NCBI GenBank assembly: GCA_020053375.1
Contig: JAGVNG010000008.1
Span: forward strand, 1,587-65,586
DNA: 64,000 nucleotides
Direction: 5' to 3'
Source of the DNA: Nanobdellota archaeon
GTDB lineage: Archaea; Nanobdellota; Nanobdellia; Pacearchaeales; GW2011-AR1
A program made the position numbers and the translations under genes. How positions within the stretch are numbered: position 1 is the first letter of the stretch; every line of letters begins with the position of its first letter. Positions 6,270 through 63,892 of the stretch are shown here, piece after piece. The notes beneath the pieces are model-generated. The model was given only the letters and a program-made list of their open reading frames with translations, ran no database searches and had not been told where the DNA came from.

Positions 6270-6863
6270 CTAAGCATATATCTCAATTATCTTGGCATTA
6301 ACTTTATAGATTTTTATTAATTTTAAAATTTCATCCTTATTTTCAACTGGAACCATGATGCTGCTTTTTCCTAATTTTTTCCCGCCAAGCCTTTCAATCA
6401 GTCCCTTATAGTGCTTTTTGTTTGCTTTAAATCCGTAAATTTTATTTAAAAATGCTCCTCTGTTTTTTCCAACCTTGTCCCAAAAGGCTACAATGTGCTT
6501 TTTTCCGCTGATGCCGGAAGGAACATATTTACCGTATAAAACAATTCCCGTGCTTTCAATGCTTTTTTTCAGGTTTATCCACTTGTCCAATTTGCCAATT
6601 ATCAAATTTATTTTATTATCTATCCCTTTCGATTTAAAAAGCAAGGATTCTCTGCTTTTATAAAAATTTTTAAGCACTTTTTCAATTTCATTTTTTATCT
6701 TTTTGCTCTCTTTTTTAATCCCAACAAAAATATCAACATCGCTTCCTTTTGTTGCTTCATCTTTTGCTGCTGAACCGAATAATATAATTTTTTCAATGCT
6801 TTCTTTTTCTTTCAGGTTGGCAAGAAGATATGATGAAAAATAACTTGCATAAGCTTTAATCAT
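6270..6863 (-). CDS. minimal nucleotidyltransferase (MNT) domain protein, antitoxin-like partner of the upstream HEPN gene
   Basis: LFGSAAKDEATKGSDVDIFV (GS...DxD nucleotidyltransferase motif); overlaps the HEPN ORF by 8 nt. Confidence 0.7.
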   Translation of the reverse strand: MIKAYASYFSSYLLANLKEKESIEKIILFGSAAKDEATKGSDVDIFVGIKKESKKIKNEIEKVLKNFYKSRESLLFKSKGIDNKINLIIGKLDKWINLKKSIESTGIVLYGKYVPSGISGKKHIVAFWDKVGKNRGAFLNKIYGFKANKKHYKGLIERLGGKKLGKSSIMVPVENKDEILKLIKIYKVNAKIIEIYA

Positions 6864-7266
6864 TTTCTAATTCCTTCTTTAAATCAAGAAATAAATTTAT
6901 TCTTTCATTCAAAGCATCTTCTGAAACCTTCTTTCCATAAACAAGCTCATTTCTTTCGCTCTCAATTTTGAATGCTGCATCTAAAATTTTATCAATATTT
7001 TCTATGCTATCTATTTGTGAGGTTATTTGGCTTGAAATAAGTTTTTTGGCATTATCTCTTTTCTTTTTTAGCCAAAGATGGTTTATTTTGGCTCCTGGTT
7101 TTAAGACATTTAATTTATTCAAATAAAATTCAAGAAGATTAATCATGCCGAAAGACAATGAAAATGCCAATCTTCTTTGATGCGCAGTTATCCCCCTGGA
7201 ATCTTTTAACGAACTCTCAATTTCATCCATTACTTCATCAAATATCTCCTTATATTTTTCTTTCAT
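6856..7266 (-). CDS. HEPN domain protein (toxin-like partner of MNT)
   Basis: RGITAHQRR matches the HEPN Rx4-6H motif; helical small protein; classic HEPN-MNT gene pair. Confidence 0.55.
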   Translation of the reverse strand: MKEKYKEIFDEVMDEIESSLKDSRGITAHQRRLAFSLSFGMINLLEFYLNKLNVLKPGAKINHLWLKKKRDNAKKLISSQITSQIDSIENIDKILDAAFKIESERNELVYGKKVSEDALNERINLFLDLKKELEND

Positions 7267-8228: not shown

Positions 8229-8690
8229 TTATCGAAGTTTGGATATTTTCTTTTGTAATCCATCAATCTTTCCAGGTATTGCTCTTGCCGCTTTTACAGC
8301 AGAAGTAATATCTGCCATCAATTTTTTTCCTGTATAAGAACTAAAAGTGTCCCTGCCTAACTGATAAGCCATGGATGCATCAAAAGGAAGGTTTGCAAAA
8401 TTCTCATATTTTCCTCCAGCAATGGACATCAAGTCGGATGCAGTTGCAATTCCATACCATCCAAAACCTGCAGCCTTTGACAGTCCTGTGAACCAATGAT
8501 TTTTAATTTTGTCCGACACCTCACCAAGAACATCAAGAGCTCCAAAAATTGCAGCCCCATAAGGATTTGCTATATTTGGGTTGATTGAAATCTTTGAGTG
8601 ACTTCCCAAGAACTTAACCAAACTAGGAAAGAGGAAGTTTCCTCCATAAATCATTATCTTTTTTCCATTATCATTGCTTGTTTTTGCCAT
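8229..8690 (-). CDS. hypothetical protein
   Basis: 153-aa ORF; plausible promoter context upstream; no recognised motif. Confidence 0.35.
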   Translation of the reverse strand: MAKTSNDNGKKIMIYGGNFLFPSLVKFLGSHSKISINPNIANPYGAAIFGALDVLGEVSDKIKNHWFTGLSKAAGFGWYGIATASDLMSIAGGKYENFANLPFDASMAYQLGRDTFSSYTGKKLMADITSAVKAARAIPGKIDGLQKKISKLR

Positions 8691-24372: not shown

Positions 24373-24803
24373 ACCTGGAGACAATACAGGCAATTGATAG
24401 TTTCCAGAACAATAATCAATATAAAGCTAATATTTCTGAAAAATAAATGTCAAGGGATGACAAGGAAACAAGCAAAAGGTTAACAAACCCCTACATTGAA
24501 ATCAGTAGGGATATTAATGGAACAAGTCGGAGTATTGGAATTAACTCTTCCACATTCTCACTCTGTCTTGAACACATGATTCCTGCATTTAGGGATAATG
24601 GACCTATATTTCCAGAAACGGAATTGGGAAGTGAGGTCTATTCAATTTATGGAGTTGTTGGAAGAACAATTCCTGGCTTCGGTTCTCTAAATATAGGAGA
24701 ATCTCCAATTTCAAGAACTTTAATGGGTTATTTAGCAGGCAAGATATTAAGAAAAGACCTTCCAAAAGTGCACAGGCTTTTTAATCCTTCAACATAAAAT
24801 TAA

Positions 24804-25200: not shown

Positions 25201-25749
25201 ATGGAATACAAAAAAAAGCAGGGGGTTTTGGAAGAGGTTTCAGAAGTGAGATTTGCAATAGACCAATATGATGATATCTTCTCTGATTTTGATCCTAGAC
25301 CCGATTCGGTAAGGGGTTTTTCAGAGGACTTTCTGTCTGAAGCAGAAAGAGCAGTTATGTCAAAAAATTCAGAAAAAATAAATTTCGTAATCATGATTGA
25401 GAAAGAAAAGAGAAATTTAAAGGAAGAAACAATCGTGAAAAACAGGCTGAAGAAATATTTCGAGAAATATTACGAGATTATGAAAAAGAAAAAAGCTGGT
25501 ATAATTAAAAAAGGTGTTTATTTCATTTTATCTGGAATAATTCTAATGTTCGCCGCAACTTTTTTGTTATTTAATTTCAAACAGGAAAGTCTCTTTACAA
25601 GCTTCTTTACCATTCTTCTAGAACCAGGTGGATGGTTTTTGTTCTGGAAAGGGCTTGAACTTGTACTCTTTGAAGCAAAGGAAGAAACTCCAGATTTGCA
25701 GTTTTATGAAAGAATGGTCAATTCAAATATAAAGTTTGATTCTGCCTGA
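25201..25749 (+). CDS. membrane protein
   Basis: Two adjacent hydrophobic helices in the C-terminal half. Confidence 0.4.
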   Translation: MEYKKKQGVLEEVSEVRFAIDQYDDIFSDFDPRPDSVRGFSEDFLSEAERAVMSKNSEKINFVIMIEKEKRNLKEETIVKNRLKKYFEKYYEIMKKKKAGIIKKGVYFILSGIILMFAATFLLFNFKQESLFTSFFTILLEPGGWFLFWKGLELVLFEAKEETPDLQFYERMVNSNIKFDSA

Positions 25750-25750
25750 T

Positions 25751-25785
25751 AAATGGCCCCGATGACCTTGGGACTAAAGCGTTAC
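25751..25785. repeat. copy 1 of the tRNA-Lys 3'-end core repeat (ATGGCCCCGATG plus a conserved tail)
   Basis: aaatggccccgatgaccttgggactaaagcgttac; the core is identical to tRNA nt 26896-26907. Confidence 0.7.
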
Positions 25786-25792
25786 TTTTTAA

Positions 25793-26083
25793 TCATAAAT
25801 CGTATCTTTTCTTATAGATTTTATCATGATGATCAAAATCAACAAAGAGGATAAAATTTCTGGATATATCAACTTTAAAAACAAGAACAAAACTAGAGTC
25901 TATATGAACTGCTTTAAATTCTTTTAAATCGTGTCTTAAATTCTTATAATGCTGGATAGATGCAGAATCAGAACTAATTATCTGCTTTATTTTTTTATTT
26001 ATAATCTCAGATTTTTTTTTGTCTTTTTTTGCTAATTTCACTATTATTAACTTAAGTTCATCTGTAATAGTAAAATCAAACAT
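25793..26083 (-). CDS. RelE/ParE-family toxin
   Basis: FKAVHIDSSFVLVFKVDISRNFILFVDFDHHDKIYK matches the RelE/ParE C-terminal core. Confidence 0.55.
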   Translation of the reverse strand: MFDFTITDELKLIIVKLAKKDKKKSEIINKKIKQIISSDSASIQHYKNLRHDLKEFKAVHIDSSFVLVFKVDISRNFILFVDFDHHDKIYKKRYDL

Positions 26084-26347
26084 TTAAGCTCCAGATAGTT
26101 TGTCAAGTTCTTGTAAACTCACCTTTTTATAGCCATGTTTCTTAAAATGATTCTTGGACACAGCAATAATTTTTTTTACATATTCCTCTGTTGCCTCTCT
26201 TTCAAGAATATCATGTCCATAAAGTTCAATAAATTTATTCAGCGCCTCTGATTTATCTTTCAACCCATATTTTAATTTTATCATACCCAAAACCCTGTTT
26301 GCATAGTCATTTAATTCAACTCTTGCTGAAATAGTTTCGTTTGTCAT
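26084..26347 (-). CDS. antitoxin (ribbon-helix-helix-like), immediately upstream of the RelE gene
   Basis: ISARVELNDYANRVLGMIKLKYGL...; gene ends where the toxin starts. Confidence 0.5.
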   Translation of the reverse strand: MTNETISARVELNDYANRVLGMIKLKYGLKDKSEALNKFIELYGHDILEREATEEYVKKIIAVSKNHFKKHGYKKVSLQELDKLSGA

Positions 26348-26422
26348 GTGATTTTATGTGTATTTGGTGTGCATTTGAGATGCATCAGGGGTATTTAAGC
26401 TTTTCTTAAATCAAAAGTGCTA

Positions 26423-26456
26423 AATGGCCCCGATGATCTTTAATATAAAGTGATAC
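26423..26456. repeat. copy 2 of the tRNA-Lys 3'-end core repeat
   Basis: aaatggccccgatgatctttaatataaagtgatac. Confidence 0.7.
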
Positions 26457-26468
26457 GGTTGTGAAAAA

Positions 26469-26843
26469 TCAATTCCCGCAAGCAATGCATTCTATTTCAA
26501 TTAATGCCCCTAAAGGCAATTCCTTAACTGCTAAAGCAACTCTTGTGGGGTAGTCTTTTTTGAAGTATTTTTGATAAATTTCATTCATTTTTGAATAATT
26601 TTTCATATCTGTAAGATAAACTCTTACCTTAACTATATTGTTTAAATTCCACCCAATTTCATTAAGAATAGTACTTATTTTTCCCAAAGCATGAAGAGTT
26701 TGGTTTTCTATTCCTTCTGCCAGTTTTCCTGTTCTGGCGTCAATTCCTACCTGTCCAGAAATTTCTAGAGTATATTTATCATCATAAAGGATAGCATCTG
26801 ATATTGGTAAGGAACCTTTATTTTCAATAAACTTTTTTACCAT
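26469..26843 (-). CDS. ridA: RidA/YjgF-family protein
   Basis: VRVYLTDMKNYSKMNEIYQKYF...PTRVALAVKELPLGALIEIECIA typical RidA core. Confidence 0.75.
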   Translation of the reverse strand: MVKKFIENKGSLPISDAILYDDKYTLEISGQVGIDARTGKLAEGIENQTLHALGKISTILNEIGWNLNNIVKVRVYLTDMKNYSKMNEIYQKYFKKDYPTRVALAVKELPLGALIEIECIACGN

Positions 26844-26896
26844 TATTAATTATAGAATAAGACCTATTTATTATTTATGGTATCAAAAAGTTTGGA

Positions 26897-27014
26897 TGGC
26901 CCCGATGGGATTTGAACCCACGACACCTGGATATCTCCTCGTTTGTACAAAGAGGTACAGAACCTAAGTCCTGCGATAAGAGTCCAGTGCTCTACCAGAC
27001 TGAGCTACGGAGCC
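26897..27014 (-). tRNA. tRNA-Lys(CTT) with a 44-nt intron at the canonical 37/38 position
   Basis: GGCTCCG-TA-GCTC-AGTCTGGTA-GAGC-A-CTGGA-CTCTTA[intron]A-TCCAG-GTGTC-GTGGG-TTCAAAT-CCCAT-CGGGGCC-A; acceptor and T stems pair (one G.U each). Confidence 0.75.
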
Positions 27015-27056
27015 TTGTTACTTGGAACGGCCAAGCTCATCTGGTGCTTTAGCCTT

Positions 27057-27078
27057 TACCAGACTGAGCTACGGAGCC
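27057..27078 (-). repeat. perfect 22-nt direct repeat of the tRNA-Lys 5' end (acceptor and D-arm)
   Basis: taccagactgagctacggagcc occurs at 26993-27014 (in the tRNA) and again at 27057-27078. Confidence 0.8.
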
Positions 27079-27184
27079 GTATCTCAGTAAATGTAACTGT
27101 ATTTAAAAGATTATTCTAAAAAGGACTTAAAAAAGTTATCCCCTATGCTTTCATTACTTTCAGGCGAATGAATGAACAAATCTA

Positions 27185-32300: not shown

Positions 32301-33554
32301 TTATTGGCTAAGCCTCTCATTTATTTTCTTTAAATTAAATAAGATTATCTTTTGCAAATTTGAAAGAAGTTTTGCATCTTCCCTGACTCTAGCTGCTTTG
32401 GTGTAGCCAAGATATTCATCCAATAATCCAAAAGGGATATCTAAAATAGGAACATTCTTTGACTGGAGTAAGTGAAAGGTAACTAATCTTGTGGTCCTGC
32501 TGTTTCCATCCTCAAATGGGTGAATATGCTGAAATTCATTATGAAAATAAACTGCGAAATTCAATATCTCTTTAAGAGACACTTTTTCTTTTTTAATGAA
32601 CTCGTTGTATTTTTTAATTAATTCCTCAAGTTCTCTTTCAATATTTTTAGCCTTTGTAATCTTAAAATTAGGATTTCCTGAAATATGGACTTTAATCTTT
32701 CTTATTTTCCCTGCAATATTAAGGTTATGTTGCATTGCCAAAAAATGATAATCTAAAATAGTTTGTAAGGTTAAAGGATTCTTATCGCGGCTATCTTTTA
32801 ACATTTGTAAAAGAGCCTTTTGATAATTTTTTACTTCATCTATATCTTCACTTTTCAGATTAGCGGGAATTATCTTATCTTTTAATATTCTTTTTGTTTC
32901 ATTGAGAGTTATAGGATTTCCTTCTAAAGCCAAACTATGATGAATAAAAGAAACCTCAAATTCACTGATAATCTGTTGATATCTGGCTTCATTTTCTCTT
33001 TTTAGCCTTCTAAACTTAGTGAGCTCTTTCTCAATATCTTCTAGGTAATTTGTTATATCCTCTGTAATAACTTTATGCCTGTATCCAAAGTAAAATAGGA
33101 GATTATTTAATAAAATATTATAAAAAACTTTAACTTTTAGGGGTTTTTCTGAAATTATAAGAAGCAATCCATTTTTGTATAAAATATCAATATATTTTCT
33201 AAAAGTAACTGAATGCAAATTAACATCGCGGGGGGTTATCTCTTTTTTCTGTAAAGCTCTGCTAACAAATTGAGCAAGCCCAGGATTTAATAGTTCATTA
33301 TAATTTATATCATTTCGCAAACAATGATAAATTATTTCATAAAGAAGATTTGAATTTTCTGTCTTTTTTGCCTGAAATCCGTAGCTAGTTTTTGCCAATA
33401 GCCCTTCTTGCATTAATTCTGTAAGAAGGCGATGAATATTGTCATATTCCCTTTCATTCTTCTTGAATTTTTTAGCCACTTCAATGGGTTTTATAGCATG
33501 TCTGTTTGTGTAAACAGCTTCAAACACATCATATTTAGTTACCATAAAATGCAT
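32301..33554 (-). CDS. Fic-family protein with C-terminal winged-helix-like region
   Basis: HPFEDGNSRTTR approximates the Fic motif HPFx[DE]GNGRxxR (second Gly replaced by Ser). Confidence 0.55.
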   Translation of the reverse strand: MHFMVTKYDVFEAVYTNRHAIKPIEVAKKFKKNEREYDNIHRLLTELMQEGLLAKTSYGFQAKKTENSNLLYEIIYHCLRNDINYNELLNPGLAQFVSRALQKKEITPRDVNLHSVTFRKYIDILYKNGLLLIISEKPLKVKVFYNILLNNLLFYFGYRHKVITEDITNYLEDIEKELTKFRRLKRENEARYQQIISEFEVSFIHHSLALEGNPITLNETKRILKDKIIPANLKSEDIDEVKNYQKALLQMLKDSRDKNPLTLQTILDYHFLAMQHNLNIAGKIRKIKVHISGNPNFKITKAKNIERELEELIKKYNEFIKKEKVSLKEILNFAVYFHNEFQHIHPFEDGNSRTTRLVTFHLLQSKNVPILDIPFGLLDEYLGYTKAARVREDAKLLSNLQKIILFNLKKINERLSQ

Positions 33555-47780: not shown

Positions 47781-48125
47781 ATGACAGAAGGCATAATTTC
47801 TTTCTCAGATTGGCAAAACCTTGATTTGAGGGTTGGAAAAATCATCAAGGTCGAGGACATAGAAGGCGCTGACAAATTATACAATCTTTCAATAGATTTG
47901 GGAAAAGAGCTGGGAAAAAGGACGCTTGTCGCAGGAATAAAACCCTATTACAAACCCTCAGAACTAAAAAACAAGTTATGTATAGTTTTCTCAAACCTTC
48001 AGCCAAGAACACTTAAAGGAATAGAAAGCCAGGGAATGCTTTTGGCAGCGGTATCAAAAGATGAAAAAGAAGTCAGGCTTCTCTGTCCTGATGCGGAAGT
48101 GGAATTGGGAAGCAAAGTTAGGTAG
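47781..48125 (+). CDS. tRNA-binding protein (Trbp111/CsaA-type OB fold)
   Basis: LDLRVGKIIKVEDIEGADKLYNLSIDLGKE...SQGMLLAA. Confidence 0.75.
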   Translation: MTEGIISFSDWQNLDLRVGKIIKVEDIEGADKLYNLSIDLGKELGKRTLVAGIKPYYKPSELKNKLCIVFSNLQPRTLKGIESQGMLLAAVSKDEKEVRLLCPDAEVELGSKVR

Positions 48126-48208: not shown

Positions 48209-48850
48209 ATGGAAATTCCACTAAACTTGAAACTGAAGAAAAAATCTCAGAAAGAGATAGCGTATGCTCAAGATATTTTAATAGGGGAACTTTATAATTT
48301 TTTTCCAAATGCTGTAATTCACGGAGGAACAGCGATATGGCGTTGTTATAATGGAAATAGATTCTCTGAGGATATTGATGTTTATATGCCTAGAGAAATG
48401 AATAAAATAGATAATTTTTTTAAGAATTTGAAAAAAAAGGGTTTTAGAATAATTAAAAGAAGGATAAAAGAAAATTCCCTTTATTCAGAAATTATGATTA
48501 ACAACTCATCGGTAAGATTTGAAGCAACCTTTCAGGTTAAAAAACCCTCTTTAAAAAAGTATGAAACATCAGAAAGTTTTTTCATTAATGTATTCACCTT
48601 ATCTGTGAAAGAATTGATTATGGAAAAAGTCAATGCCTATTTAAACAGGAGAAAAATACGGGATTTGTATGATATTTTCTTTTTATTAAACCATGCTGAG
48701 AGAGAGAGAGATGTAAAAGACTATTTAAATAGGCTGGTTAAAAATTTCGAGAAACCCGTAGATGAGGGGAATTTGGCAACTATTATTATTTCTGGAGCTG
48801 TTCCTGATTCTAAACAGCTTCTGGAGGCTATAAAGGGATGGGTAAAATAA
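48209..48850 (+). CDS. AbiEii/AbiGii-family nucleotidyltransferase toxin
   Basis: HGGTAIWRCYNGNRFSEDIDVYMP (GGTAL...R.SEDiD signature of DUF1814/AbiEii). Confidence 0.65.
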   Translation: MEIPLNLKLKKKSQKEIAYAQDILIGELYNFFPNAVIHGGTAIWRCYNGNRFSEDIDVYMPREMNKIDNFFKNLKKKGFRIIKRRIKENSLYSEIMINNSSVRFEATFQVKKPSLKKYETSESFFINVFTLSVKELIMEKVNAYLNRRKIRDLYDIFFLLNHAERERDVKDYLNRLVKNFEKPVDEGNLATIIISGAVPDSKQLLEAIKGWVK

Positions 48851-49425
48851 AGTATATTAACAAAATAAGAAAATTTTTCAAAGAAAGCCCCGTAGTCAGC
48901 ATAACCTCTCTAAAAAAATTCATTGGAAAAAAAAATAATGATTATATATATTTAATTATTAACAACTTGCTCAAAAAAGTGGAAATAAAAAGGATAACAA
49001 AGGGCTATTACACCATTCACGAAGACCCTTCTCTGGCTGTCTTTTGTTTTAAACCATCTTATTTGGGATTGCAGGATGCATTAAGTTTTCATGAGCTTTG
49101 GGAGCAGGAAACAAATCCTATCATAATTACTTCAAGAAAAGTAAGAAGGGGGATAAGAAAAATATTTTTGCATAATATAATTTTAAAAAATATAAATAGT
49201 AAATATGTATTTGGCTTTAACTATGAAAAACAGGGAGATTTTTATTTTCCATACTCTGACATGGAAAAGACTTTCATTGACATGATTTATTTTAAACAGT
49301 ATTTAGACAAAGAAACAAAAGAAAACATTGTCAAAAAACTTGACAGGAAAAAATTGAATTCTTACCTAAAAGCCTATCCAAAGATATTCAGAAGAAGGGT
49401 ATTGAATTTGCTGAAATCAAAGTAA
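48838..49425 (+). CDS. possible AbiEi-like winged-helix partner
   Basis: IKRITKGYYTIHEDP resembles the AbiEi N-terminal wHTH; overlaps the upstream gene by 13 nt. Confidence 0.35.
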   Translation: MGKIKYINKIRKFFKESPVVSITSLKKFIGKKNNDYIYLIINNLLKKVEIKRITKGYYTIHEDPSLAVFCFKPSYLGLQDALSFHELWEQETNPIIITSRKVRRGIRKIFLHNIILKNINSKYVFGFNYEKQGDFYFPYSDMEKTFIDMIYFKQYLDKETKENIVKKLDRKKLNSYLKAYPKIFRRRVLNLLKSK

Positions 49426-49490
49426 ATTTCTTATAAATATGCTTGAAATATGTTTTTATGAAATGGAAATTATATCTAGCTTTAATTCTC

Positions 49491-49538
49491 TTCTTTGCCC
49501 CGATAAAAGACATAGAACTGGGAAGCGAGGTTAGATAA
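49491..49538. repeat. intergenic repeat family B, copy 1
   Basis: ttctttgccccgataaaagacatagaactgggaagcgaggttagataa. Confidence 0.8.
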
Positions 49539-49600
49539 TGATATTTCTGCCTGTGTGTCTACATAGAAAGTTTTATAAATAATGTAGACGTACATTTTTC

Positions 49601-50062
49601 ATGGCATACACTGAAATAAAAGCACGAAACAGAAATAAGTATTTTTATAGAGTTGTCTCAGTAAGACAAGGAAACAAGATTAACAAAAAAAGAATATATT
49701 TAGGAGTTAATTTGAATAAGCAAGTCTTGTCAAATAAAGAATCAGAAGCCGACAAATCCCTTTCAGATGAAAAAATCAAAAAGAATATAGAAAAAATAAA
49801 GCCAAAAATAATTGAAATCCTGAAAAAATATAAGATTAAGAGGGCTAGTTTATTTGGAAGTTACGTAAGAGGGAAACAAAAAAAAGGAAGTGATATTGAT
49901 ATTTTGATTCAGCCAGCAGAAAATATGAGTATATTAGATCTTTCTGGATTAAAAATTGAATTGGAAAAGGATTTGAGTAAAAAAGTGGACTTAATTAGTT
50001 ATAAATATATTCATCCTTATTTAAAAGATAGAATTCTAGAAAGCGAGGTAAAAATATTATGA
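49601..50062 (+). CDS. minimal nucleotidyltransferase (MntA-like antitoxin)
   Basis: LFGSYVRGKQKKGSDIDILI. Confidence 0.7.
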   Translation: MAYTEIKARNRNKYFYRVVSVRQGNKINKKRIYLGVNLNKQVLSNKESEADKSLSDEKIKKNIEKIKPKIIEILKKYKIKRASLFGSYVRGKQKKGSDIDILIQPAENMSILDLSGLKIELEKDLSKKVDLISYKYIHPYLKDRILESEVKIL

Positions 50063-50406
50063 AAAGGGATATAAACTTGTTTCTTTATGACATAATTGAG
50101 GCAATTAATGATATCTTGGAGTCTGTTAAAAGCCTCTCAAAAGAAGAGTTTTTAGACAACAAAGATGTTAAAGATGCTAATATAAGAAGATTGGAAATTA
50201 TAGGAGAAGCTGTGAAGAACATACCAATTTCTTTTAGAGAAAAATATCCAGATACCCCTTGGAACAAAATCGCTGGAACGAGAGATATAATAACGCATGG
50301 GTATTTTATAATTGACCTGGATGCTGTCTGGAAAGTTATTAAAAAAGACTTGCCAAAACTAAAAAAACAAATAAAAAAGATAAAGGGTGAATTGGCTTTA
50401 AAATAG
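50059..50406 (+). CDS. HepT-like HEPN toxin (DUF86)
   Basis: RDIITHGYF (Rx4HxY HEPN motif); 4-nt overlap with the upstream MNT gene. Confidence 0.65.
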   Translation: MKRDINLFLYDIIEAINDILESVKSLSKEEFLDNKDVKDANIRRLEIIGEAVKNIPISFREKYPDTPWNKIAGTRDIITHGYFIIDLDAVWKVIKKDLPKLKKQIKKIKGELALK

Positions 50407-50421
50407 AATTTTATTGCTTTC

Positions 50422-50468
50422 TTCTCTGCCCCGATGAAGGCATAGAATTGGGAAGCAGGGTGAGATAA
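50422..50468. repeat. intergenic repeat family B, copy 2
   Basis: ttctctgccccgatgaaggcatagaattgggaagcagggtgagataa. Confidence 0.8.
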
Positions 50469-50529
50469 TTTTCTTACCATATAAGAAAATTAACTTAAAT
50501 TAGGGTTTTTTCTTACCAAATAGGAAAAT

Positions 50530-50964
50530 TTATAATTTAATTAGCTCTTCAAATTTTCTTTTTATTTCCGGTAAAACTTTTTCAGCAAATTTTATAGATT
50601 CCCTACATTTTTCAACAGATATTTTTTCTGCCTGATAAACTGATTTATTTCTGAGAATTCTATAATTATCCAGAATATTAATCTTCTCTTCAGATAAATA
50701 TCTGTTCTTTATCAAGAAAGCAATTAAAGCCTCATGCGATAATGGCTTATATTTTGATAATTGCATTAGCGCCTGAGAAGATTCCCTGATAACTTCATAA
50801 GCATCCTCAAAAATTAAGGGAGCGTTATCTTCTTTAATCTGTTCTTTGAGTATTCTATTTAATCTAACTTCTGCTTTTTCTAATAATGATTTAGCCAAGC
50901 TAACATTCAGGACGGTTTTTTCAACTTGCCTTTCCTTTTCATAATATTCAAATGGTTTTATCAT
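50530..50964 (-). CDS. HEPN-like helical protein, partner of the upstream MNT gene
   Basis: Helical 144-aa protein, 4-nt overlap with the MNT ORF; HEPN motif not clear-cut. Confidence 0.4.
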   Translation of the reverse strand: MIKPFEYYEKERQVEKTVLNVSLAKSLLEKAEVRLNRILKEQIKEDNAPLIFEDAYEVIRESSQALMQLSKYKPLSHEALIAFLIKNRYLSEEKINILDNYRILRNKSVYQAEKISVEKCRESIKFAEKVLPEIKRKFEELIKL

Positions 50965-51488
50965 TTTATTAGTTCAATATAACCCTCAAGCACAATGCCA
51001 TTAGCTAGAGAATTTTTAAACTCTTTTTTCATGTTATCAATATCTGAATTTATTATATTTATTTTTCTATTTAATCTTTTTTCAAAATTAGTCAAGTCTG
51101 GCAGATTTTTTTTATTTGACAAAATACACAAGTCAATATCGCTCTTTTCTGTATCTGATCCTTTTGAATAGCTTCCAAATAAAATTATGGCTTGCGGTTC
51201 CTCGTAAAAGCCTCTCAGATAATTTATCAGCCCGCTTTCGTATAATGAATAAAAATTATACAATCTTTTGATTAAATAAAATCTATTGGCAAAATTTGGC
51301 TTTACTTCTTCTGTAACCTTTTCTTTCTTAGAAATTAATAAACCCTCTTTCTTTAATTTTTTAATAATCTTGATTATGCCAGGAGGAGATAATCCCGTTA
51401 TTCTTGAAAGTTCCCTTATATGAAAGCTCTTGTTGGGATTTTTAAAAAATATCTCAATCACTTTTAGATTGTTATCTTTAGTTATCAT
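50961..51488 (-). CDS. nucleotidyltransferase with N-terminal winged-helix domain
   Basis: IILFGSYSKGSDTEKSDIDLCIL; N-terminal ELSRITGLSPPGIIKIIKKLKKEGLL. Confidence 0.65.
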   Translation of the reverse strand: MITKDNNLKVIEIFFKNPNKSFHIRELSRITGLSPPGIIKIIKKLKKEGLLISKKEKVTEEVKPNFANRFYLIKRLYNFYSLYESGLINYLRGFYEEPQAIILFGSYSKGSDTEKSDIDLCILSNKKNLPDLTNFEKRLNRKINIINSDIDNMKKEFKNSLANGIVLEGYIELIK

Positions 51489-51526
51489 ATGTAAACTATA
51501 AATGACGGCTGATATTTAAAGTTTAC

Positions 51527-51573
51527 GGTTCCCTTCTTCAGCCAGACAAGGACATAGAATTGGGAAGCAAAGT
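51527..51573. repeat. intergenic repeat family B, copy 3 (diverged 5' part)
   Basis: ttcttcagccagacaaggacatagaattgggaagcaaagtaagataa. Confidence 0.75.
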
Positions 51574-51658
51574 AAGATAAAAAATATATCTCTATATTCT
51601 CCCAAAATAAACCGTCATCCTAACTAATCCCCTAAAAATTAAAATCTTGGCTGCTTGC

Positions 51659-52420
51659 TTAAACAATAGCTTCCCATCCAGTACAATAAGTGTAAGAATA
51701 GAAATACTCATCAGCAACACCCGCATCACATTGTGCTTTAGTCCAGTATTTGCATGAACCCAATCCTGAAGATTTAGGACTATCTTGAACATAACCTACC
51801 TGAGTAATTCCCACATTTGCATGAGGTCCGCCACCACAAGTTGCAGCAGGATAAGCAGGATTAATTGCACCTGATTGACATTCGGGGTTAGGTACTGCAT
51901 CTGTATTCCAAGCACAATATTTGATAGTACGAGCAGTATAGACCCATGCATCAAGCACTATATTTGTTGAAAGTGGATTAATATAAGCATAATCAGTAAC
52001 CCCTGTATTCACAGGCTTAAGAGATAAAGAACTGGTTATTGTTGTGCCAGGTGCCAAAGCCTCACAAATCCAAGCACTTCCTGTCCATTTCAAGAAAGTT
52101 CCAGAAGCACACGAGCTAGGCTGTTGTATACCACTAGAAGTCGTCACATCCGCACAACTCCAATAACCATATGGTTCATTTCCCCCTTCGTAATTCCATT
52201 GCAAAAACTGACCCCCAGCACATCCACTAGGAGGTGCAATCTGATTTGCAACCCCATCTAAAGTATGTCCTGGATTTGGAGTAACCCCCGGTCGCACGGA
52301 ATAGAGAGCATAAACACCCGTAGCTAATAATATTACCGCAAAGACAGCAATTATTGTATAAGAAAGCCTATTTGAGATATTAAACCTCTTAGAATTTTTT
52401 AACCCCTTTTTTCTTACCAT
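51659..52420 (-). CDS. Cys/Gly/Thr-rich secreted or surface protein, compositionally atypical (higher GC)
   Basis: N-terminal TM/signal anchor, about 14 Cys, low Lys content, unlike neighbouring genes. Confidence 0.45.
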   Translation of the reverse strand: MVRKKGLKNSKRFNISNRLSYTIIAVFAVILLATGVYALYSVRPGVTPNPGHTLDGVANQIAPPSGCAGGQFLQWNYEGGNEPYGYWSCADVTTSSGIQQPSSCASGTFLKWTGSAWICEALAPGTTITSSLSLKPVNTGVTDYAYINPLSTNIVLDAWVYTARTIKYCAWNTDAVPNPECQSGAINPAYPAATCGGGPHANVGITQVGYVQDSPKSSGLGSCKYWTKAQCDAGVADEYFYSYTYCTGWEAIV

Positions 52421-52505
52421 CTTTGTTACGATTAGTTAGAATTTAGTATTTAAATATCTTTTGATGATAAAGGATAATAATAGAGGAGAAAGGAGGTTAT
52501 CTTTA

Positions 52506-53954
52506 TTATTCACTCGCAATCTTTCTAAACAGTATTTCAGACTTCTTAATTTTTCCAACTTTCAGCGGTTTTTTAATGTTCTCAATCTTTATCTCAAAAC
52601 CAAAGATTTTTGCAATTTTCTCGCTAGTTGAGGGAATAAAAGGCCATAACAGAATTGCAATTGCCTTTATGCTGTCCGCGAGTTCATAGAGAACTTTTTT
52701 GTTGTGTGTCTCCCATGGCTTTTTATTCTGAACATATTCATTGCATGCGTCTATAAAAGCAAAGATTTCATTCAATACCTTGTCAAACTCATAATTTTCA
52801 AGCAGTTTCTCTATCTTCTTCAGATCAAGTTTTTTTAACAGCTTATTTTCGCATTTTTCCAGACCATATTTTTCGGCGAGAGCTGAAACCCTTGAGACCA
52901 AATTTCCCAGCTTGTCAGCAAGCTCATTATTGTATCTATCAACAAGAACCTTCTCTGAAAAGTCGCCGTCTTCTCCGAAAGGGATGTGTCTAAGCAAAAA
53001 GTATCTTAGAGAGTCTGAAGAATATTTTTTAGATAATTCTAAGGGATTTATAGTAATCCCCCTGGCTTTGCTTAATTTTTCACCTTCCAAATTGATGAAA
53101 CCATGAACGACAACTTTTGGAAGGTCTAGGTTAAGGGCTCTTAAAATAGAAAACCAAAGAACTGTGTGGTGCCAAACGATATCCGAACCTATAAAATGTG
53201 TTGCTGGCCAAAAATCTTTGAATTTTTGGTTTGGATAATCTACTGTAGTTAAGTAATTATTAAGCGCCTCAAACCAAACAAATTCTGTTAAACTCTTATC
53301 AAAAGGAAGAGGAATCCCCCATCTAACATTTTTTCTGCTTATATTCAAATCCCTTAATGGTTCCTTTAATCTATTAAGAATTTCTTTTCTCTTTTTTTCT
53401 GGCCAAATAGAGCCGGGATTTTTCTTTATGTAATTAATAAGAAAATTTCTGTATTTACTAAGCTTAAAGAAATAACCTTCTTCTTTAACTTGCTCTACGG
53501 GTTTTTTATGTATAGAGCAGTTTCCGTCAATCAAGTCTTTCTCAGTATAATAAGTTTCACAATCTACGCAGTAAAGACCTTCATAAAATCCCTTATAGAT
53601 TTCACCCCTATTATACAATTCATTGAGAATATTTTGTGCAACTTTTTTGTGCCTCTGTTCTATGGTCATGATAAAATCATCATAAGAAATATTAAGAGCT
53701 TTAGATAATTCTTTAAATTGCTCGGAAATCTCTTTAACAAATTCTAAAGGATTTTTGCCTGCTTTCTCAGCAGCTCTTTGAATTTTGAGACCATGACAGT
53801 CGGTTCCTGTGCTAAAATGAACCTTGAAACCCTTTAGTCTTTTCCATCTAGCTAAAACATCTGTGCAAATTTTTTCATATGCATGCCCTAAATGAAAAGT
53901 TGACGAAGGGTAATCTATAGCGGTGCTTACCTGGAAATTTTTATCTGTTGTCAT
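52506..53954 (-). CDS. metG: methionyl-tRNA synthetase (short form)
   Basis: PSSTFHLGHAYEKICTDVLARWKRLKG (HIGH region, MetRS-like), CxxC knuckle CVDC, KLSKAR (KMSKS-like). Confidence 0.8.
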   Translation of the reverse strand: MTTDKNFQVSTAIDYPSSTFHLGHAYEKICTDVLARWKRLKGFKVHFSTGTDCHGLKIQRAAEKAGKNPLEFVKEISEQFKELSKALNISYDDFIMTIEQRHKKVAQNILNELYNRGEIYKGFYEGLYCVDCETYYTEKDLIDGNCSIHKKPVEQVKEEGYFFKLSKYRNFLINYIKKNPGSIWPEKKRKEILNRLKEPLRDLNISRKNVRWGIPLPFDKSLTEFVWFEALNNYLTTVDYPNQKFKDFWPATHFIGSDIVWHHTVLWFSILRALNLDLPKVVVHGFINLEGEKLSKARGITINPLELSKKYSSDSLRYFLLRHIPFGEDGDFSEKVLVDRYNNELADKLGNLVSRVSALAEKYGLEKCENKLLKKLDLKKIEKLLENYEFDKVLNEIFAFIDACNEYVQNKKPWETHNKKVLYELADSIKAIAILLWPFIPSTSEKIAKIFGFEIKIENIKKPLKVGKIKKSEILFRKIASE

Positions 53955-54912
53955 ATTTTATGTTCCTATTAATAATATTCTTTTCAGCCTTTTTTAAAGC
54001 TTTTATTTTATTTTTATGTTTAATATATTGTCTCAAAAGATTAAATAACTTTAATAAAGAATCTTTTCTATTGACGCGTATTTGAAAATAGTTTTGGCTA
54101 TGTCCATAGCCTTCTGGGCTAAAATATTTACTAGTATCCGATTCATACGGCCCATTACAAACAATGCCTAATTTATTCAAATTATTGCAGATAAATGATA
54201 AGATATTTTTATTATAATTTCCTATTTGAAAAACTGCTTGTTTATTATAAATACCTATATTCCCTTCAGCATCTGTAAAGCCTGCAAGAAAGGATAAGAA
54301 TAATTTTTCATTTTTTTCTATCCAAGGGGGAATTTCCTTGCTTAATAAGAAAATAAAGGACTCATTAAGGGCAACCCATATATTTATTTTTTTGTTTCTT
54401 GCTGTTTTAATTTTAACTTTTCCATATTCTTTAAATAAGCTCTTTATTAACTCTATTTGTTCTTTTATTGTGCTTCCGCTTGCAACAGTAATTGTTTTGC
54501 TATTTGGCCAAATTTTTCTTACTCCTAAATCACCTATTCTAAATCCTATTAAATATGCTTTTTCTATTAAATTACTAGAAAAGTCCTTTCTTTTATTAAC
54601 TATATTGGAAGTAGCTAAATCTCTTGTTCCAATCCCATATTCTTTTAATTTTCTATGAACCGTGCCTCTACTAAACCCATACCTTTTTTCTATTTTCCAC
54701 GTAGACAGCTTTTTATTTAAATAATACTCAATAAGTTTATTTTTTTGGGGCACATTAGAATTAAGTTCGTAAGGAGTTCTTCTTTTAATATTAAATCTAA
54801 CTAGCCTTTTCCAAACAGTTGCCTGACAACAATTTAATTTTTGAGCAATTTGATAAGTATTAAGTTTTTGGTTTGTATATAATTCGTTCAACTGAGAAGA
54901 AGAAATCTTCAC
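53941..54912 (-). CDS. free-standing LAGLIDADG homing endonuclease with N-terminal tandem HTH domains
   Basis: LIGFRIGDLGV and LAGFTDAEGNIG LAGLIDADG motifs; N-terminal TYQIAQKLNCCQATVWKRL and STWKIEKRYGFSRGTVHRKL HTHs; overlaps the metG start by 14 nt. Confidence 0.65.
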   Translation of the reverse strand: MKISSSQLNELYTNQKLNTYQIAQKLNCCQATVWKRLVRFNIKRRTPYELNSNVPQKNKLIEYYLNKKLSTWKIEKRYGFSRGTVHRKLKEYGIGTRDLATSNIVNKRKDFSSNLIEKAYLIGFRIGDLGVRKIWPNSKTITVASGSTIKEQIELIKSLFKEYGKVKIKTARNKKINIWVALNESFIFLLSKEIPPWIEKNEKLFLSFLAGFTDAEGNIGIYNKQAVFQIGNYNKNILSFICNNLNKLGIVCNGPYESDTSKYFSPEGYGHSQNYFQIRVNRKDSLLKLFNLLRQYIKHKNKIKALKKAEKNIINRNIKYDNR

Positions 54913-55825: not shown

Positions 55826-56491
55826 ATGCAGATTCCTTCTAACATATCTACAGAACTGGCAGAAGAAGTAGGTTGGCACATTGGTGATGGAAGCATGAAT
55901 TTTTATAAAAACAGAGGAAAACTAAAAGGTCTCTATCAATTAAGGGGTCATATTGAAGATGATAAAGAGCATTATGAAAAAAGAATTAGACCTCTATTTG
56001 AAAAATTATTTGGTGTCAAATTGAGTATAAGAGACATGCCTTCTACAAGAGTTGTTGGATTTCAAATATGGAACAATGATTTAATCAACTTCAAGAAAAA
56101 TCTTGGACTTCCATTAGGATATAAATATAAAGTAGAAATTCCAACTGCATTCTTATTAAAGGGTAGTTTAAAAAGAGCCGTCATTAAAGGAATTTTTGAT
56201 ACAGATGGGGGAATTTATCTGCAAAGAAAAAATAATAAATTATATCCCCGGATATACATAACCACTATTTCCCTTGTATTATCTGAACAATTATTAAGAA
56301 TATTTGATGAATTCAGTCTTCGTGCTACAAGATATTCTCAATTATATAATAAAAAATTTAATAGAAAAAGGAGTTATATTGTAACAATTAGGGGAGTAGA
56401 TATGTTCCATAAATTTATGAAAGAGATTTCACCAAAAAATCCAAAGCATATTAAGAAATATCTGGATTTTCTCAACTCGCAAAACCTATAA
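55826..56491 (+). CDS. free-standing single-chain LAGLIDADG homing endonuclease
   Basis: EVGWHIGDGSMN and IKGIFDTDGGIY LAGLIDADG motifs. Confidence 0.65.
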   Translation: MQIPSNISTELAEEVGWHIGDGSMNFYKNRGKLKGLYQLRGHIEDDKEHYEKRIRPLFEKLFGVKLSIRDMPSTRVVGFQIWNNDLINFKKNLGLPLGYKYKVEIPTAFLLKGSLKRAVIKGIFDTDGGIYLQRKNNKLYPRIYITTISLVLSEQLLRIFDEFSLRATRYSQLYNKKFNRKRSYIVTIRGVDMFHKFMKEISPKNPKHIKKYLDFLNSQNL

Positions 56492-62500: not shown

Positions 62501-63520
62501 TTAATAAAAATTTGTATACTTCTGTTCAACTTTTTTCCTTAATTTAAAAGCATTAGCCCACTTTGCATAAGCGTTCCATCCTTGGAGGATTTCCGCCATT
62601 TTACTGCCTGATATTTTTCCTCGATTAAATTTTCCCATTTTTCTTTCAATATTTTTTATATTCTTTTTTCTTAATAATTTATAATAATAGAAATTCCTGA
62701 AACCGACAAAATCAATTCCTCTTGATAATAAGATAATTCTTGACTTATCTGGGTGAAGTTCCAGTTTTAATTTTTCTTCTAAGAATTGACTTATTCGTTC
62801 TTTCAAATTTTCTAATTGTTCTTTTGAATTGTGCAAAATAACAAAATCATCAACATATCTTATGTAATGCTTAGCTTTAAGCAAGTGTTTGACAAAATAG
62901 TCAAGTTCATTAAGATAAACATTTGCAAAAAATTGGGATGTTAAATTCCCTAAGGGCATTCCCTTTCCAGAGGGATTGTCTGAAACATTATTATTCAAAA
63001 TTCTTTTAATAAGCCAGATTACTCCTTCATCTTTTATCCTTCTTTTTATTATATTAAGAAGGATTTTATGATTAACTTCCTGAAAATAATGCTTTATGTC
63101 TGCTTTAAGGCAATATCCAGAAGAAGCATGGTTTTTGGTAACTTTTCTTCTAAATCTTTCAAATCGCTTCAAAGCAAATAAATTTCCTCTGCCTTTTCTG
63201 TTTGCGCATGAATCATAGATGAATGTCCTATCAAAAATAGGCTCAATAACCCTTACCAATGCATGATGAACAACCCTATCTTTAAAATTAGATTTTGAGA
63301 TTTTTCTCGTTTTTGGGTCTCTCAAAATGAATGTTATCAGAGATTTTGGTTTATAATAAAAGTATTTCAGTTCATAGTGCAGTGCTTTTAAATTATCCCT
63401 CAAATTTTTTTCAAATTCAATGACGTAATCTTTTTTTGTTTTGCTCTTTCTTGCCTTTTGCCATGCAAGAATTAAATTTCTCATTGAATAAATTTTAGGA
63501 TAAAGATTATCAGTTTCCAT
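62501..63520 (-). CDS. diversity-generating retroelement (DGR) reverse transcriptase
   Basis: RT motifs: RKISKSNFKDRVVHHAL (1/2), CLKADIKHYF (3), GMPLGNLTSQFFANVYLNELD (4; LGNLTSQ is the DGR-type [ILV]GxxxSQ rather than QGxxxSP), YIRYVDDFVIL (5, YxDD), LELHPDKSRII (6/7), IDFVGF; compact 339 aa; TR immediately upstream. Confidence 0.85.
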   Translation of the reverse strand: METDNLYPKIYSMRNLILAWQKARKSKTKKDYVIEFEKNLRDNLKALHYELKYFYYKPKSLITFILRDPKTRKISKSNFKDRVVHHALVRVIEPIFDRTFIYDSCANRKGRGNLFALKRFERFRRKVTKNHASSGYCLKADIKHYFQEVNHKILLNIIKRRIKDEGVIWLIKRILNNNVSDNPSGKGMPLGNLTSQFFANVYLNELDYFVKHLLKAKHYIRYVDDFVILHNSKEQLENLKERISQFLEEKLKLELHPDKSRIILLSRGIDFVGFRNFYYYKLLRKKNIKNIERKMGKFNRGKISGSKMAEILQGWNAYAKWANAFKLRKKVEQKYTNFY

Positions 63521-63550: not shown

Positions 63551-63676
63551 ATTCCGAGGTCAGAATTCCTGTTGGAAGGATTCCTGTTGCAGTTGAGGTT
63601 AGCCCTGTCAGAATTGGCATTGAACCTGGCAACTTTTAGCCAATTTACCAATTCAAAAACTTTAAAAGTTTTCACC
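63551..63676 (-). repeat. DGR template repeat (TR). Only 63551-63627 can be aligned inside the window; the upstream boundary is inferred
   Basis: 63554-63627 aligns to VR 63927-64000 with 14 mismatches, all at TR adenines on the minus strand; the in-frame translation is Asn(AAC/AAT)-rich (FNANSDRANLNCNRNPSNRN). Confidence 0.8.
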
Positions 63677-63698
63677 GAATCTGTCCGCGGACAGATTC
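63677..63698. promoter_or_regulatory. perfect 22-nt palindrome GAATCTGTCCGCGGACAGATTC between the target-gene stop and the TR
   Basis: Self-complementary over its full length; sits at the likely 5' boundary of the TR transcript. Confidence 0.4.
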
Positions 63699-63892
63699 TG
63701 TATTTTATGACTTAAAATAAATCTAAATAATGTTCTAGTAAATTGACGTGTAGTCCATATTTATCTCTCTTGCTTCAGCATTTTTCAATTGCTCATTTTA
63801 AAAGATGCTTAAAAGACACTTTCAGGACAAACCATCAAATGAATGGATGTTTAAAAATTTTGTGTTTGTTCTTATAAATGTTTCCAGCGAGC

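Follow-up and report, generated by a model that had tools for sequence, protein, structure and literature searches.

We analysed a 64,000-nucleotide (nt) stretch of contig JAGVNG010000008.1 from a Nanobdellota archaeon (assembly GCA_020053375.1), referred to below as the window, and found that a gene for a small tRNA-binding domain protein (47781–48125, plus strand) is followed by an array of three cassettes, each holding a toxin-antitoxin (TA) gene pair and each ending in a displaced copy of the 3' tail of that gene. The repeats at the cassette boundaries derive from this tail. Among related genomes the site is variably occupied, and the cassettes behave as discrete units with independent histories and a fixed polarity. 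We consider it probable that the array grew by directional Campbell-type accretion of integrase-less TA mini-cassettes, with the 3' end of the gene as the attachment (att) site and a recombinase supplied in trans.

The repeats are copies of a coding tail

An earlier reading of this DNA, made from the letters alone (hereafter the sequence-only reading), had described three same-strand copies of an intergenic repeat at the boundaries of gene pairs. These copies are real and well in excess of chance: a degenerate 27-nt core pattern has three matches in the window, compared with 0.00 matches expected from 100 shuffles. The flanking genes lie 12–63 nt from the copies. All three are on the plus strand, at 49489–49538 (c1), 50419–50468 (c2), and 51532–51580 (c3). 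The third had been placed at 51527–51573, a start that is off by about 6 nt and an end that loses the last 7 nt. The identity of about 80% given for the three copies holds only within a 33-nt core (82–85%); over 48 nt without gaps it is 67–75%. A common start had also been assigned to the first two copies, which is correct for c2 (TGCCCCGATGA) but not for c1, which has TGCCCCGATAA.

A repeat finder picked up a weaker fourth member at 48064–48125, and this copy (c0, 48078–48125, plus strand) is the true 3' end of the open reading frame (ORF) 47781–48125. In the frame of that gene, all four copies translate as ..P(D)xx(I/V)ELGSxVR with the stop codon aligned in each. The functional gene tail c0, an attL-like member of the repeat, reads LLCPDAEVELGSKVR; the displaced copies, which we call relics, read FFAPIKDIELGSEVR (c1), LLCPDEGIELGSRVR (c2), and LLQPDKDIELGSKVR (c3, the distal end of the array), each up to its stop codon. 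Relic c1 shows decay in the form of a 1-nt indel relative to c2. Similarity among the copies ends at the stop codon, with none beyond it. Because all copies translate in the gene frame and the similarity stops at the stop codon, what had looked like generic intergenic repeats are copies of the C-terminal coding tail, namely the last 14–16 codons and the stop codon.

A profile built from related copies recovers all four members, with E-values of 7.5e-10 (c0), 1.2e-9 (c1), 8.2e-13 (c2), and 3.9e-13 (c3). Neither the core pattern nor the profile finds the motif elsewhere in the window, and in other loci it occurs only downstream of the orthologous gene. A weak tail-like match at 24614–24637 (AGAAACGGAATTGGGAAGTGAGGT, within ORF 24447–24797, which reads ..PETELGSEV..; profile E=0.35) is probably coincidental.

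The gene that supplies the tail encodes a 114-residue stand-alone tRNA-binding domain protein resembling Trbp111 and the C-terminal domain of methionyl-tRNA synthetase (MetRS) (Pfam tRNA_bind, PF01588, E=1.4e-27). The domain covers residues 16–112 of 114, and the gene is intact despite the array behind it. No recorded protein matched its exact sequence.

The four copies delimit three cassettes, with 12–83 nt between a copy and the nearest cassette gene. The sequence-only reading had counted two bracketed cassettes beside an AbiEii/AbiEi module that was merely adjacent; with c0 recognised, this module becomes the first of the three. At every boundary the repeat has the orientation of the gene, irrespective of the strand of the cassette genes. 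The argument that this orientation speaks against a simple promoter is sound, as the copies keep the orientation of the gene and each cassette has a different promoter region.

The three cassettes in the window

Cassette 1 (48209–49425, plus strand) consists of an AbiEii toxin gene (48209–48850; Pfam AbiEii, E=5.5e-17) and an AbiEi antitoxin gene (48838–49425), which PADLOC recognises with E=1.4e-21 and E=2.8e-18, respectively. Its conserved promoter region, GATAAATTTATAAATAAAC, begins approximately 15–20 nt past the stop codon of the tRNA-binding domain gene. Homologues of this cassette are present at three of the related loci described below (each designated by an L number), L087, L089, and L163.

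Cassette 2 (49601–50406, plus strand) pairs an MNT nucleotidyltransferase antitoxin (49601–50062) with a HepT RNase toxin (50059–50406), as assigned by Pfam (Polbeta, E=9.4e-17; NTP_transf_2, E=3.2e-14; HepT-like, E=5.6e-28). Its homologues are at L083 (73/69% identity) and L089 (68/64%). Upstream of the pair, a putative promoter/operator (49553–49600, plus strand) contains the TATA-like TTTATAAATA (49572–49581) within an inverted repeat formed by GTCTACAT (49557–49564) and ATGTAGAC (49582–49589). This region is conserved with the cassettes of L083 and L089, but the 13–30 nt that precede it after the stop codon are not.

Cassette 3 (50530–51488, minus strand) carries a HEPN-like toxin (50530–50964) and a helix-turn-helix (HTH)-MNT antitoxin (50961–51488), identified by Pfam (HTH_24, Polbeta, and NTP_transf_2) and by PADLOC (PDC-M05B, E=3e-8; PDC-M05A, E=1e-18). 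It is 73–84% identical to cassettes of L087, L163, L165, and L166. Its promoter region (51489–51531, minus strand; ATGTAAACTATAAATGACGGCTGATATTTAAAGTTTACGGTTCC in the plus-strand reading) forms the conserved right edge of the cassette, abuts relic c3, and is kept in every context of this family, including the relic-less sites L161, L203, and L209. Two short palindromes, TTTTCTTACCATATAAGAAAA and TTTTCTTACCAAATAGGAAAA, lie between c2 and the HEPN stop codon (50466–50530; direct repeat D12). As single-stranded DNA this region folds with −9.5 kcal/mol (z=−2.68). The palindromes, which are missing in the L087 copy of the cassette, are probably the terminator of the minus-strand pair.

Measured from stop codon to stop codon, the three units are 1413, 930, and 1112 nt long. 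Recognised toxin and antitoxin domains are found in all three pairs, and the genes of the MNT/HepT and the HEPN-like/HTH-MNT pairs overlap by 4 nt each; on domain content the cargo qualifies as predicted type II/IV TA modules. The cassette block has a GC content of 27–30%, compared with 33–41% in the backbone on both sides. The latter figure includes the gene for a Cys-rich surface protein (51659–52420, minus strand), which had been described as GC-atypical and part of the island. At 38–41% GC it is backbone-like, and it is the cassettes that form the low-GC part. This gene and the 482-residue catalytic core of MetRS, without its C-terminal tRNA-binding domain by Pfam (52506–53954, minus strand), make up the conserved backbone beyond the array (51659–53954) and lie outside the mobile part.

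The same site in related genomes

A search with the tRNA_bind protein gave 160 loci, mostly from metagenome-assembled genomes of Pacearchaeota, Woesearchaeota, and Nanoarchaeota. We built a nucleotide profile from the last 60 nt of 159 orthologues and searched it against all loci. Extra tail copies downstream of the orthologue, always on the gene strand, were found only in the window, L001, L083, L087, and L089. A search from the cassette side adds L163, L165, and L166, which brings the number of independent genomes to eight with the window. Apparent extra tails in L037, L131, and L132 were discarded as relics, being the C-terminus of a second, complete tRNA_bind paralogue. In these three loci (L037 2337–3503, L131 9998–10601, L132 879–1472) the C-terminus of tRNA_bind is altered (..IEFKND before the stop codon), and a second tRNA_bind-like ORF of 81–84 residues follows, with the canonical end PEKDIE(V/A/P)GSKIR; in L037 a 190-residue ORF lies between the two.

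The array-bearing loci share a common arrangement, in which MinD and tRNA_bind lead into the array and MetRS core, preceded in some by the surface protein, points back towards it. What stands between them differs. There is no cassette at L081, L002, L004, and L095, which have the same synteny: in L081, which is the closest relative (82% protein identity), 48 nt separate the tRNA_bind stop codon from the start of the surface-protein gene, with MetRS after the latter, and in the other three the MetRS gene lies 6–72 nt from that stop codon. One unit is present at L001 (HTH-MNT/HEPN), L083 (MNT/HepT), L165 (gene tail IIQPEGDMALGSRVR, relic LLQPEGNVALGSKVR), and L166 (gene tail FLLQPDDNIELGSKIR, relic FLLQPDDDIELGSKVR), where each of the latter four sequences ends in a stop codon. 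At least three units are present in the window, L087, L089, and L163. L087 has HEPN/HTH-MNT, then a 265-residue MNT with a 106-residue ORF, and then AbiEii/AbiEi; L089 has MNT/HepT, Fic, AbiEii/AbiEi, and finally HEPN with MNT; the long array of L163 comprises at least four relic-bounded units. Occupancy of the site is variable among related genomes.

The cassette genes themselves lead back to the same place. At E≤1e-10 there are 819 homologues of the HTH-MNT protein, and in three of the four long-contig contexts of its close homologues the pair stands directly 3' of a tRNA_bind gene and is itself followed by a displaced copy of the tail. The sequence-only reading had named, as the outcome that would speak against mobile cassettes, a repeat found at many unrelated genes or failing to flank cassettes elsewhere; the repeat is unique to this site in the window and flanks cassettes in other genomes.

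The neighbourhood of the target gene has some features of its own. MetRS is split in the window, with the catalytic core at 52506–53954 and the tRNA-binding domain separate at 47781–48125. In most related DPANN genomes MetRS is immediately upstream of tRNA_bind and co-directional, whereas in the array-bearing clade the two are convergent with the cassette site in between. HTH/LAGLIDADG-like ORFs at 53941–54912 and 55826–56491 flank the MetRS region (LAGLIDADG_3, E=1.3e-8 for the latter). As a homologue (83% identity) sits beside MetRS in L165 too, this is a conserved neighbour and not a homing endonuclease gene that was inserted recently.

Independent histories and fixed polarity of the cassettes

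The order of the cassettes is not conserved. Reading away from the gene, it is AbiE, MNT-HepT, HEPN-MNT in the window; HEPN-MNT, MNT265, AbiE in L087; and AbiE, MNT265, HEPN-MNT in L163. The L087 and L163 orders are exactly reversed; identity between their MNT265 pairs is 65% and 64%. Orientation relative to the gene, in contrast, is constant within each family: HEPN-MNT is antiparallel in all five cases, and AbiE (four of four) and MNT-HepT (three of three) are parallel. Given a permuted order with constant family orientation, neither inversion nor deletion explains the pattern. An origin of all the arrays by deletion from one ancestral order is contradicted by the comparison of L087 with L163.

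Divergence is equally uneven. Between the window and L087, the HEPN/HTH-MNT proteins are 81/84% identical and the AbiEii/AbiEi proteins 55/66%, compared with 54–69% for host proteins; with L163 in place of L087, the corresponding values are 79/80% and 73/82%. The identity of the host MinD, tRNA_bind, and MetRS proteins is 52–82%. We do not rely on the observation that c2 and c3 are nearer to the tails of relatives than to the tail of the window's own gene, a difference of a few nucleotides over 45 nt.

The edges of the units are also consistent. Cassette homology begins at the family-specific promoter region, 15–25 nt past the preceding stop codon, and the junction between cassette and relic after HEPN-MNT, ACGGTTCC joined to CTTCTTC, is common to the window, L163, and L165. 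Relics 3' of AbiE in L087 and L089 share TCTCCAGCCAGAA (P-E) and differ in this from the other copies in those genomes. The right limit of the repeat is sharp at the stop codon in all copies; the left boundary varies from −40 to −72 nt. In L001, tail and relic are identical over 56 nt, after which 7 positions within the final 16–17 nt differ, and in L083 they are identical over 34 nt before a diverged end; this near-identity of tail and relic indicates recent events. In L089, the relic after MNT/HepT (8572–8620) is preceded by a remnant of the promoter and start codon of a HEPN/HTH-MNT cassette (AGTTATCACATG...TTTAAAGTTTACGGTT), a sign that this array has lost a cassette or had one replaced.

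These comparisons show discrete units that have independent histories and keep their polarity. The proposal that the array consists of mobile cassettes bounded by recombination sites gains comparative support from the variable occupancy, the permuted order with kept orientation, and the unequal divergence.

A second array at tRNA-Lys

A second array of like logic occupies 25747–27014 on the minus strand, where a tRNA and two copies of its 3' end accompany two gene units. The tRNA-Lys(CTT) gene (26897–27014, minus strand) contains an intron; it scores 58.2 bits with the Rfam tRNA model and was missed by ARAGORN. Copies of its 3' end at 26418–26436 and 25747–25765 (minus strand; repeats D1/D2) bound a RidA-like gene (26469–26843) and a RelE/antitoxin pair (25793–26347). 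The same tRNA is followed just downstream by the RelE pair (75–87% identity) in three other DPANN genomes, L214–L216, and relics are present 3' of the RelE cassette in L215 and between the tRNA and the cassette in L214.

A GC-rich 10-mer, GCCCCGATGA, had been reported as common to the tRNA-Lys repeats and the repeats discussed above. The match is real, as the 10-mer occurs in both tRNA-Lys relics (25756–25765 and 26427–26436) and in c2; a shared meaning is another matter. As a candidate for a common recombinase core it was rejected, being conserved in neither c0, c3, nor the tails of other genomes, and having the opposite orientation relative to the array. The sharing with c2 is probably coincidental. 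Just upstream of the tRNA, within 27020–27080, there is also a 25-nt duplicate of the 5' part of tRNA-Lys (27054–27078 compared with 26990–27014, 96% identity), which may represent a fragment of a tRNA 5' end or else belong to a further tRNA that is split or went unrecognised.

A probable mechanism and its alternatives

In the account we favour, the 3' end of gene 47781–48125 would serve as the attachment site at which small self-contained cassettes were inserted one after another. A cassette unit would consist of its own promoter, a TA pair, and a copy of the gene tail, and would arrive in circular or linear form. Insertion would be a directional Campbell-type recombination between the tail copy of the incoming cassette and the resident tail copy, which would leave the essential C-terminal strand of the tRNA-binding fold intact, supplied in frame, and put another tail copy beyond the cassette; repeated insertion would yield an array. 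Campbell-type insertion implies that each boundary has a copy in the orientation of the gene, whatever the strand of the cassette genes. Because the array contains no recombinase, the recombination, presumably site-specific, would be catalysed in trans by an enzyme whose gene lies at another place in the genome or on a helper element. Gene conversion between tail and relic may keep the relics host-like, and the TA content may stabilise the array against deletion. The relic length of 40–72 nt, in keeping with the known archaeal att range of 8–69 bp, lends support, as do the low GC content of the cassette block and the second array at tRNA-Lys. In addition, across seven genomes, the differences between tails and relics fall on codon positions 1, 2, and 3 in numbers of 39, 31, and 79 (p=1.6e-6), and 48 of the 102 differing codons are synonymous. 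This bias is supportive in that it fits copies that once served as coding tails.

Several observations weigh against this account. The same codon-position bias could also come from one constrained and one neutral copy, a mix that gives a like split, and we dropped it as proof that the relics were once functional. The HEPN/HTH-MNT cassette also occurs at the relic-less sites L161, L203, and L209, with its conserved 5' edge AACCGTAAACTTTAAATATCAG…ATG, which means that a cassette need not include the tail copy; in L161 the cassette homology ends precisely where relic c3 starts in the window. Relics track the lineage of their host (in the residues ELGS, EEGS, or ALGS) to a greater extent than would be predicted if a site carried by the cassette recombined in a strictly conservative, site-specific way, and the differences between tail and relic form a mosaic that complicates a simple conservative model. 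Host-like and mosaic relics require that either concerted evolution, through gene conversion between tail and relic, or variable crossover points be invoked. A long target-site duplication, which we also considered, fits the host-like relics but neither the family-specific relic features nor the mosaic in L001. No recombinase was found in the 64-kb window, as covered by the ORF list and a Pfam scan of ten unassigned ORFs (a part of all ORFs), nor in any of approximately 20 cassettes or at the site in the 160 related loci. Loci with extra DNA at the site (L015, L104, L157, L140, L018, L008, and L033) and the Pfam-annotated contexts of cassette homologues yielded none either. We found no free, circular, or attP-bearing form. 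Viral contigs contained no relative of HTH-MNT and no tail-like site: the 27-nt tail pattern had 0 matches, and the 35 matches to a 17-mer neither extended past the seed nor accompanied a tRNA_bind gene.

The relic-less sites have neighbours worth recording. In L161 (3683–5874) the HTH-MNT/HEPN cassette adjoins a restriction-modification cluster (Vsr, R-HinP1I, DNA methylase), in L203 it stands beside a small Cas4-domain ORF and another MNT pair, and in L209 it is directly upstream of MetRS and overlaps it.

Two other histories would produce a similar layout. The cassettes could be the remains of larger viruses or plasmids that integrated at the gene 3' end with their own integrase, in successive independent events, and then lost everything except a TA pair and the att sites, as in accretion of cis-mobilizable elements (CIMEs). 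Integrase loss after integration and tandem integration are both documented in archaea (PMC8371274), the cassettes hold only TA genes yet keep the bounding tail copies that the definition of a CIME asks for, and the promoter remnant in front of the first relic of L089 demonstrates that decay and replacement inside arrays occur. We nevertheless regard this history as unlikely: the approximately 20 cassettes in eight genomes contain no integrase fragment or other element gene, their relic-to-gene spacers are only 12–83 nt, no full-length element occupies the site in 160 loci, there are no viral relatives, and the same minimal unit, edges, and relic junction recur across genomes and positions, which independent decay would not yield. 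Alternatively, no dedicated recombinase may be needed if circles or linear fragments with a cassette and a tail copy came from relatives and were integrated at the resident tail by the homologous recombination of the host, and unequal exchange and gene conversion between the 40–70-nt copies shuffled and homogenised them. The resemblance of relics to the host's own tail in lineage-specific residues, the mosaics in L001 and L083, the left repeat boundary that ranges from −40 to −72 nt, and the failure to find a recombinase in the window, the cassettes, or the related loci would all follow. This we think quite unlikely, as window copies that are 54–75% identical over 48 nt are a poor substrate for homologous recombination, the approximately 12 nt of identity with the tRNA in the tRNA-Lys array (CATCGGGGCCAT) is too short for efficiency, and the strict family polarity and the sharp limit at the stop codon look site-specific.

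The sequence-only reading had likened the array to integron attC sites, and the closest form of this idea is an integron-type array without integrase (a cluster of attC sites lacking integron-integrases, or CALIN), in which the repeats would be attC sites and an IntI from another locus would recombine them in folded single-stranded form. The same-orientation sites between cassettes and the wealth of TA genes would suit it, and CALINs have been reported in Archaea, including Nanoarchaeota (PMC9668308). The structure of the sites does not. Folded as single-stranded DNA, the copies form no stable structure (z from +0.44 to −2.16); RNAalifold, run on 22 copies, predicts 0 pairs, against the conserved secondary structure that had been proposed as a check; and the only recurring hairpin, our candidate helix, is paired at 70.1% compared with 69.9% in shuffles and 72.1% with the partner slid by one column, with no covariation. 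The R' motif GTTRRRY is matched in c0 and c1, where Val-Arg codons form it, but is missing in c2 and c3, and the R'' core RYYYAAC is absent from all four copies. Moreover, the sites are in-frame copies of the neighbouring coding tail, whereas attC-type sites are expected to be unrelated to flanking chromosomal genes; each cassette is equipped with a promoter, and one of the families runs antiparallel; and we found no attI near the array and no IntI among the window ORFs, part of which were scanned against Pfam. This reading is largely refuted and very improbable, and the array does not belong to the integron family. A shared regulatory element, such as a promoter, a terminator, or an untranslated-region motif, or else a chance or low-complexity repeat, might have been suspected from the position of the copies in short intergenic spacers beside gene ends. 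With 0 chance matches expected, profile E-values from 1e-9 to 1e-13, a preserved reading frame and aligned stop codon, an orientation independent of the neighbouring strand, a different promoter region for each cassette, and a motif that is found only downstream of the orthologous gene, this idea is refuted and deserves practically no weight.

Beyond the accretion of cassettes at one gene, it is tempting to speculate that DPANN archaea of the Pacearchaeota/Woesearchaeota group have an as yet undescribed, integron-like cassette platform of a different build. Insertion would take place at a fixed site, the 3' coding terminus of a housekeeping gene, here that for the tRNA-binding partner of a split MetRS, with tRNA-Lys as a parallel case; each TA cassette would bring a coding-competent tail copy, and a dedicated or host recombinase encoded elsewhere, for example XerA-like, would insert, excise, and re-order the cassettes directionally. 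We hold this wider idea to be possible but doubtful.

Other features of the window

TA-type genes are frequent in the 64-kb stretch. Far from the array, a further MNT (6270–6863) and HEPN-like (6856–7266) pair occupies 6270–7266 on the minus strand, and a Fic/DOC-domain protein is encoded at 32301–33554 (Pfam Fic, E=1.6e-13). Near the end of the window, a reverse transcriptase ORF (62501–63520, minus strand; Pfam RVT_1, E=1.6e-26) adjoins a match to the Rfam RT-16 RNA (63631–63779, minus strand; 62.2 bits with a gathering score of 50). Together they make up a reverse transcriptase with its associated non-coding RNA in a DPANN genome (62501–63779).

Significance and comparison with known systems

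The genomes of DPANN archaea are tiny (about 1 Mb), and to our knowledge almost nothing is known of their mobile elements. Our results point to DPANN genomes keeping at least two dedicated hotspots that collect, exchange, and re-order defence or addiction modules with no accompanying recombinase gene. If a site-specific recombinase does act in trans, this would be a compact, sequence-defined system of cassette capture whose site of approximately 50 nt preserves the host gene; it would be searchable through the signature of gene-tail relics and might provide an integration tool for genetically intractable organisms. For annotation, a short pseudo-C-terminus repeated 3' of a gene can be read as the boundary of inserted cassettes. 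Our literature search returned no description of such arrays in DPANN archaea.

Recombination-bounded cassettes had been thought unusual in an archaeon, which overstates the case, as 3'-end integration, tandem re-use of sites, integrase loss, integrons, and CALINs are all documented there (PMC6563490, PMC8371274, PMC9668308). Archaeal elements can lie in 3'-distal parts of protein genes, as 14 of 68 do in Thaumarchaeota, and are known for att sites of 8–69 bp and tandem re-use of a site (PMC6563490), and loss of the integrase gene after integration has been described (PMC8371274). The arrays resemble such elements in the type of target, in att length (8–69 bp compared with 40–72 nt here), in the re-use of one site in tandem, and in a stop codon or C-terminus supplied by the inserted DNA. 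The archaeal elements, however, measure from kilobases to tens of kilobases and usually have their own integrase or casposase, whereas here there is neither and each unit has a single TA pair.

CIMEs and their accretion were defined in bacteria, for example for elements related to ICESt1/ICESt3 at fda in Streptococcus thermophilus (PMC5704250). They have in common with the present arrays that the units lack an integrase, are added at an existing att copy, and leave the target gene intact. The units described here differ in being 0.9–1.4 kb long with only a promoter and a TA pair, in showing no decay trace of larger elements, and in having neither conjugation nor integration genes anywhere; units of the same minimal make-up recur, re-ordered among genomes, in a DPANN host and at a tRNA-binding-domain gene.

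TA-cassette-rich integrons and CALINs have been reported in Archaea, Nanoarchaeota included (PMC9668308). As in these systems, there is a fixed insertion point, the cassettes are small and each is followed by a site of constant orientation, TA cassettes are abundant, the cassettes have independent histories, and movement may occur in trans. Unlike them, the arrays have no IntI or attI and no attC hairpin or R''/R' cores; their sites are copies of a coding tail, their cassettes have their own promoters, and a housekeeping gene provides the platform with its 3' end.

The pdif/dif modules of Acinetobacter plasmids and IMEX offer a further parallel. Small, site-bounded, and often made up of TA pairs, they are moved by host Xer recombinases that they do not encode. 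The pdif sites are 28-bp XerC/XerD sites of alternating orientation and unrelated to gene ends. The arrays share with these modules the small TA units between recombination sites and, presumably, a recombinase that is not self-encoded; their sites, in contrast, are direct copies of a gene tail without dif-like inverted arms. What is particular to the arrays is the single TA pair as a complete unit, the tRNA-binding-domain target, the recurrence and re-ordering across at least eight DPANN genomes, and the lack of a recombinase in cis. They fail the structural tests that define integrons, and combine the att-relic anatomy of 3'-end integrated elements with the cassette logic of integrons.

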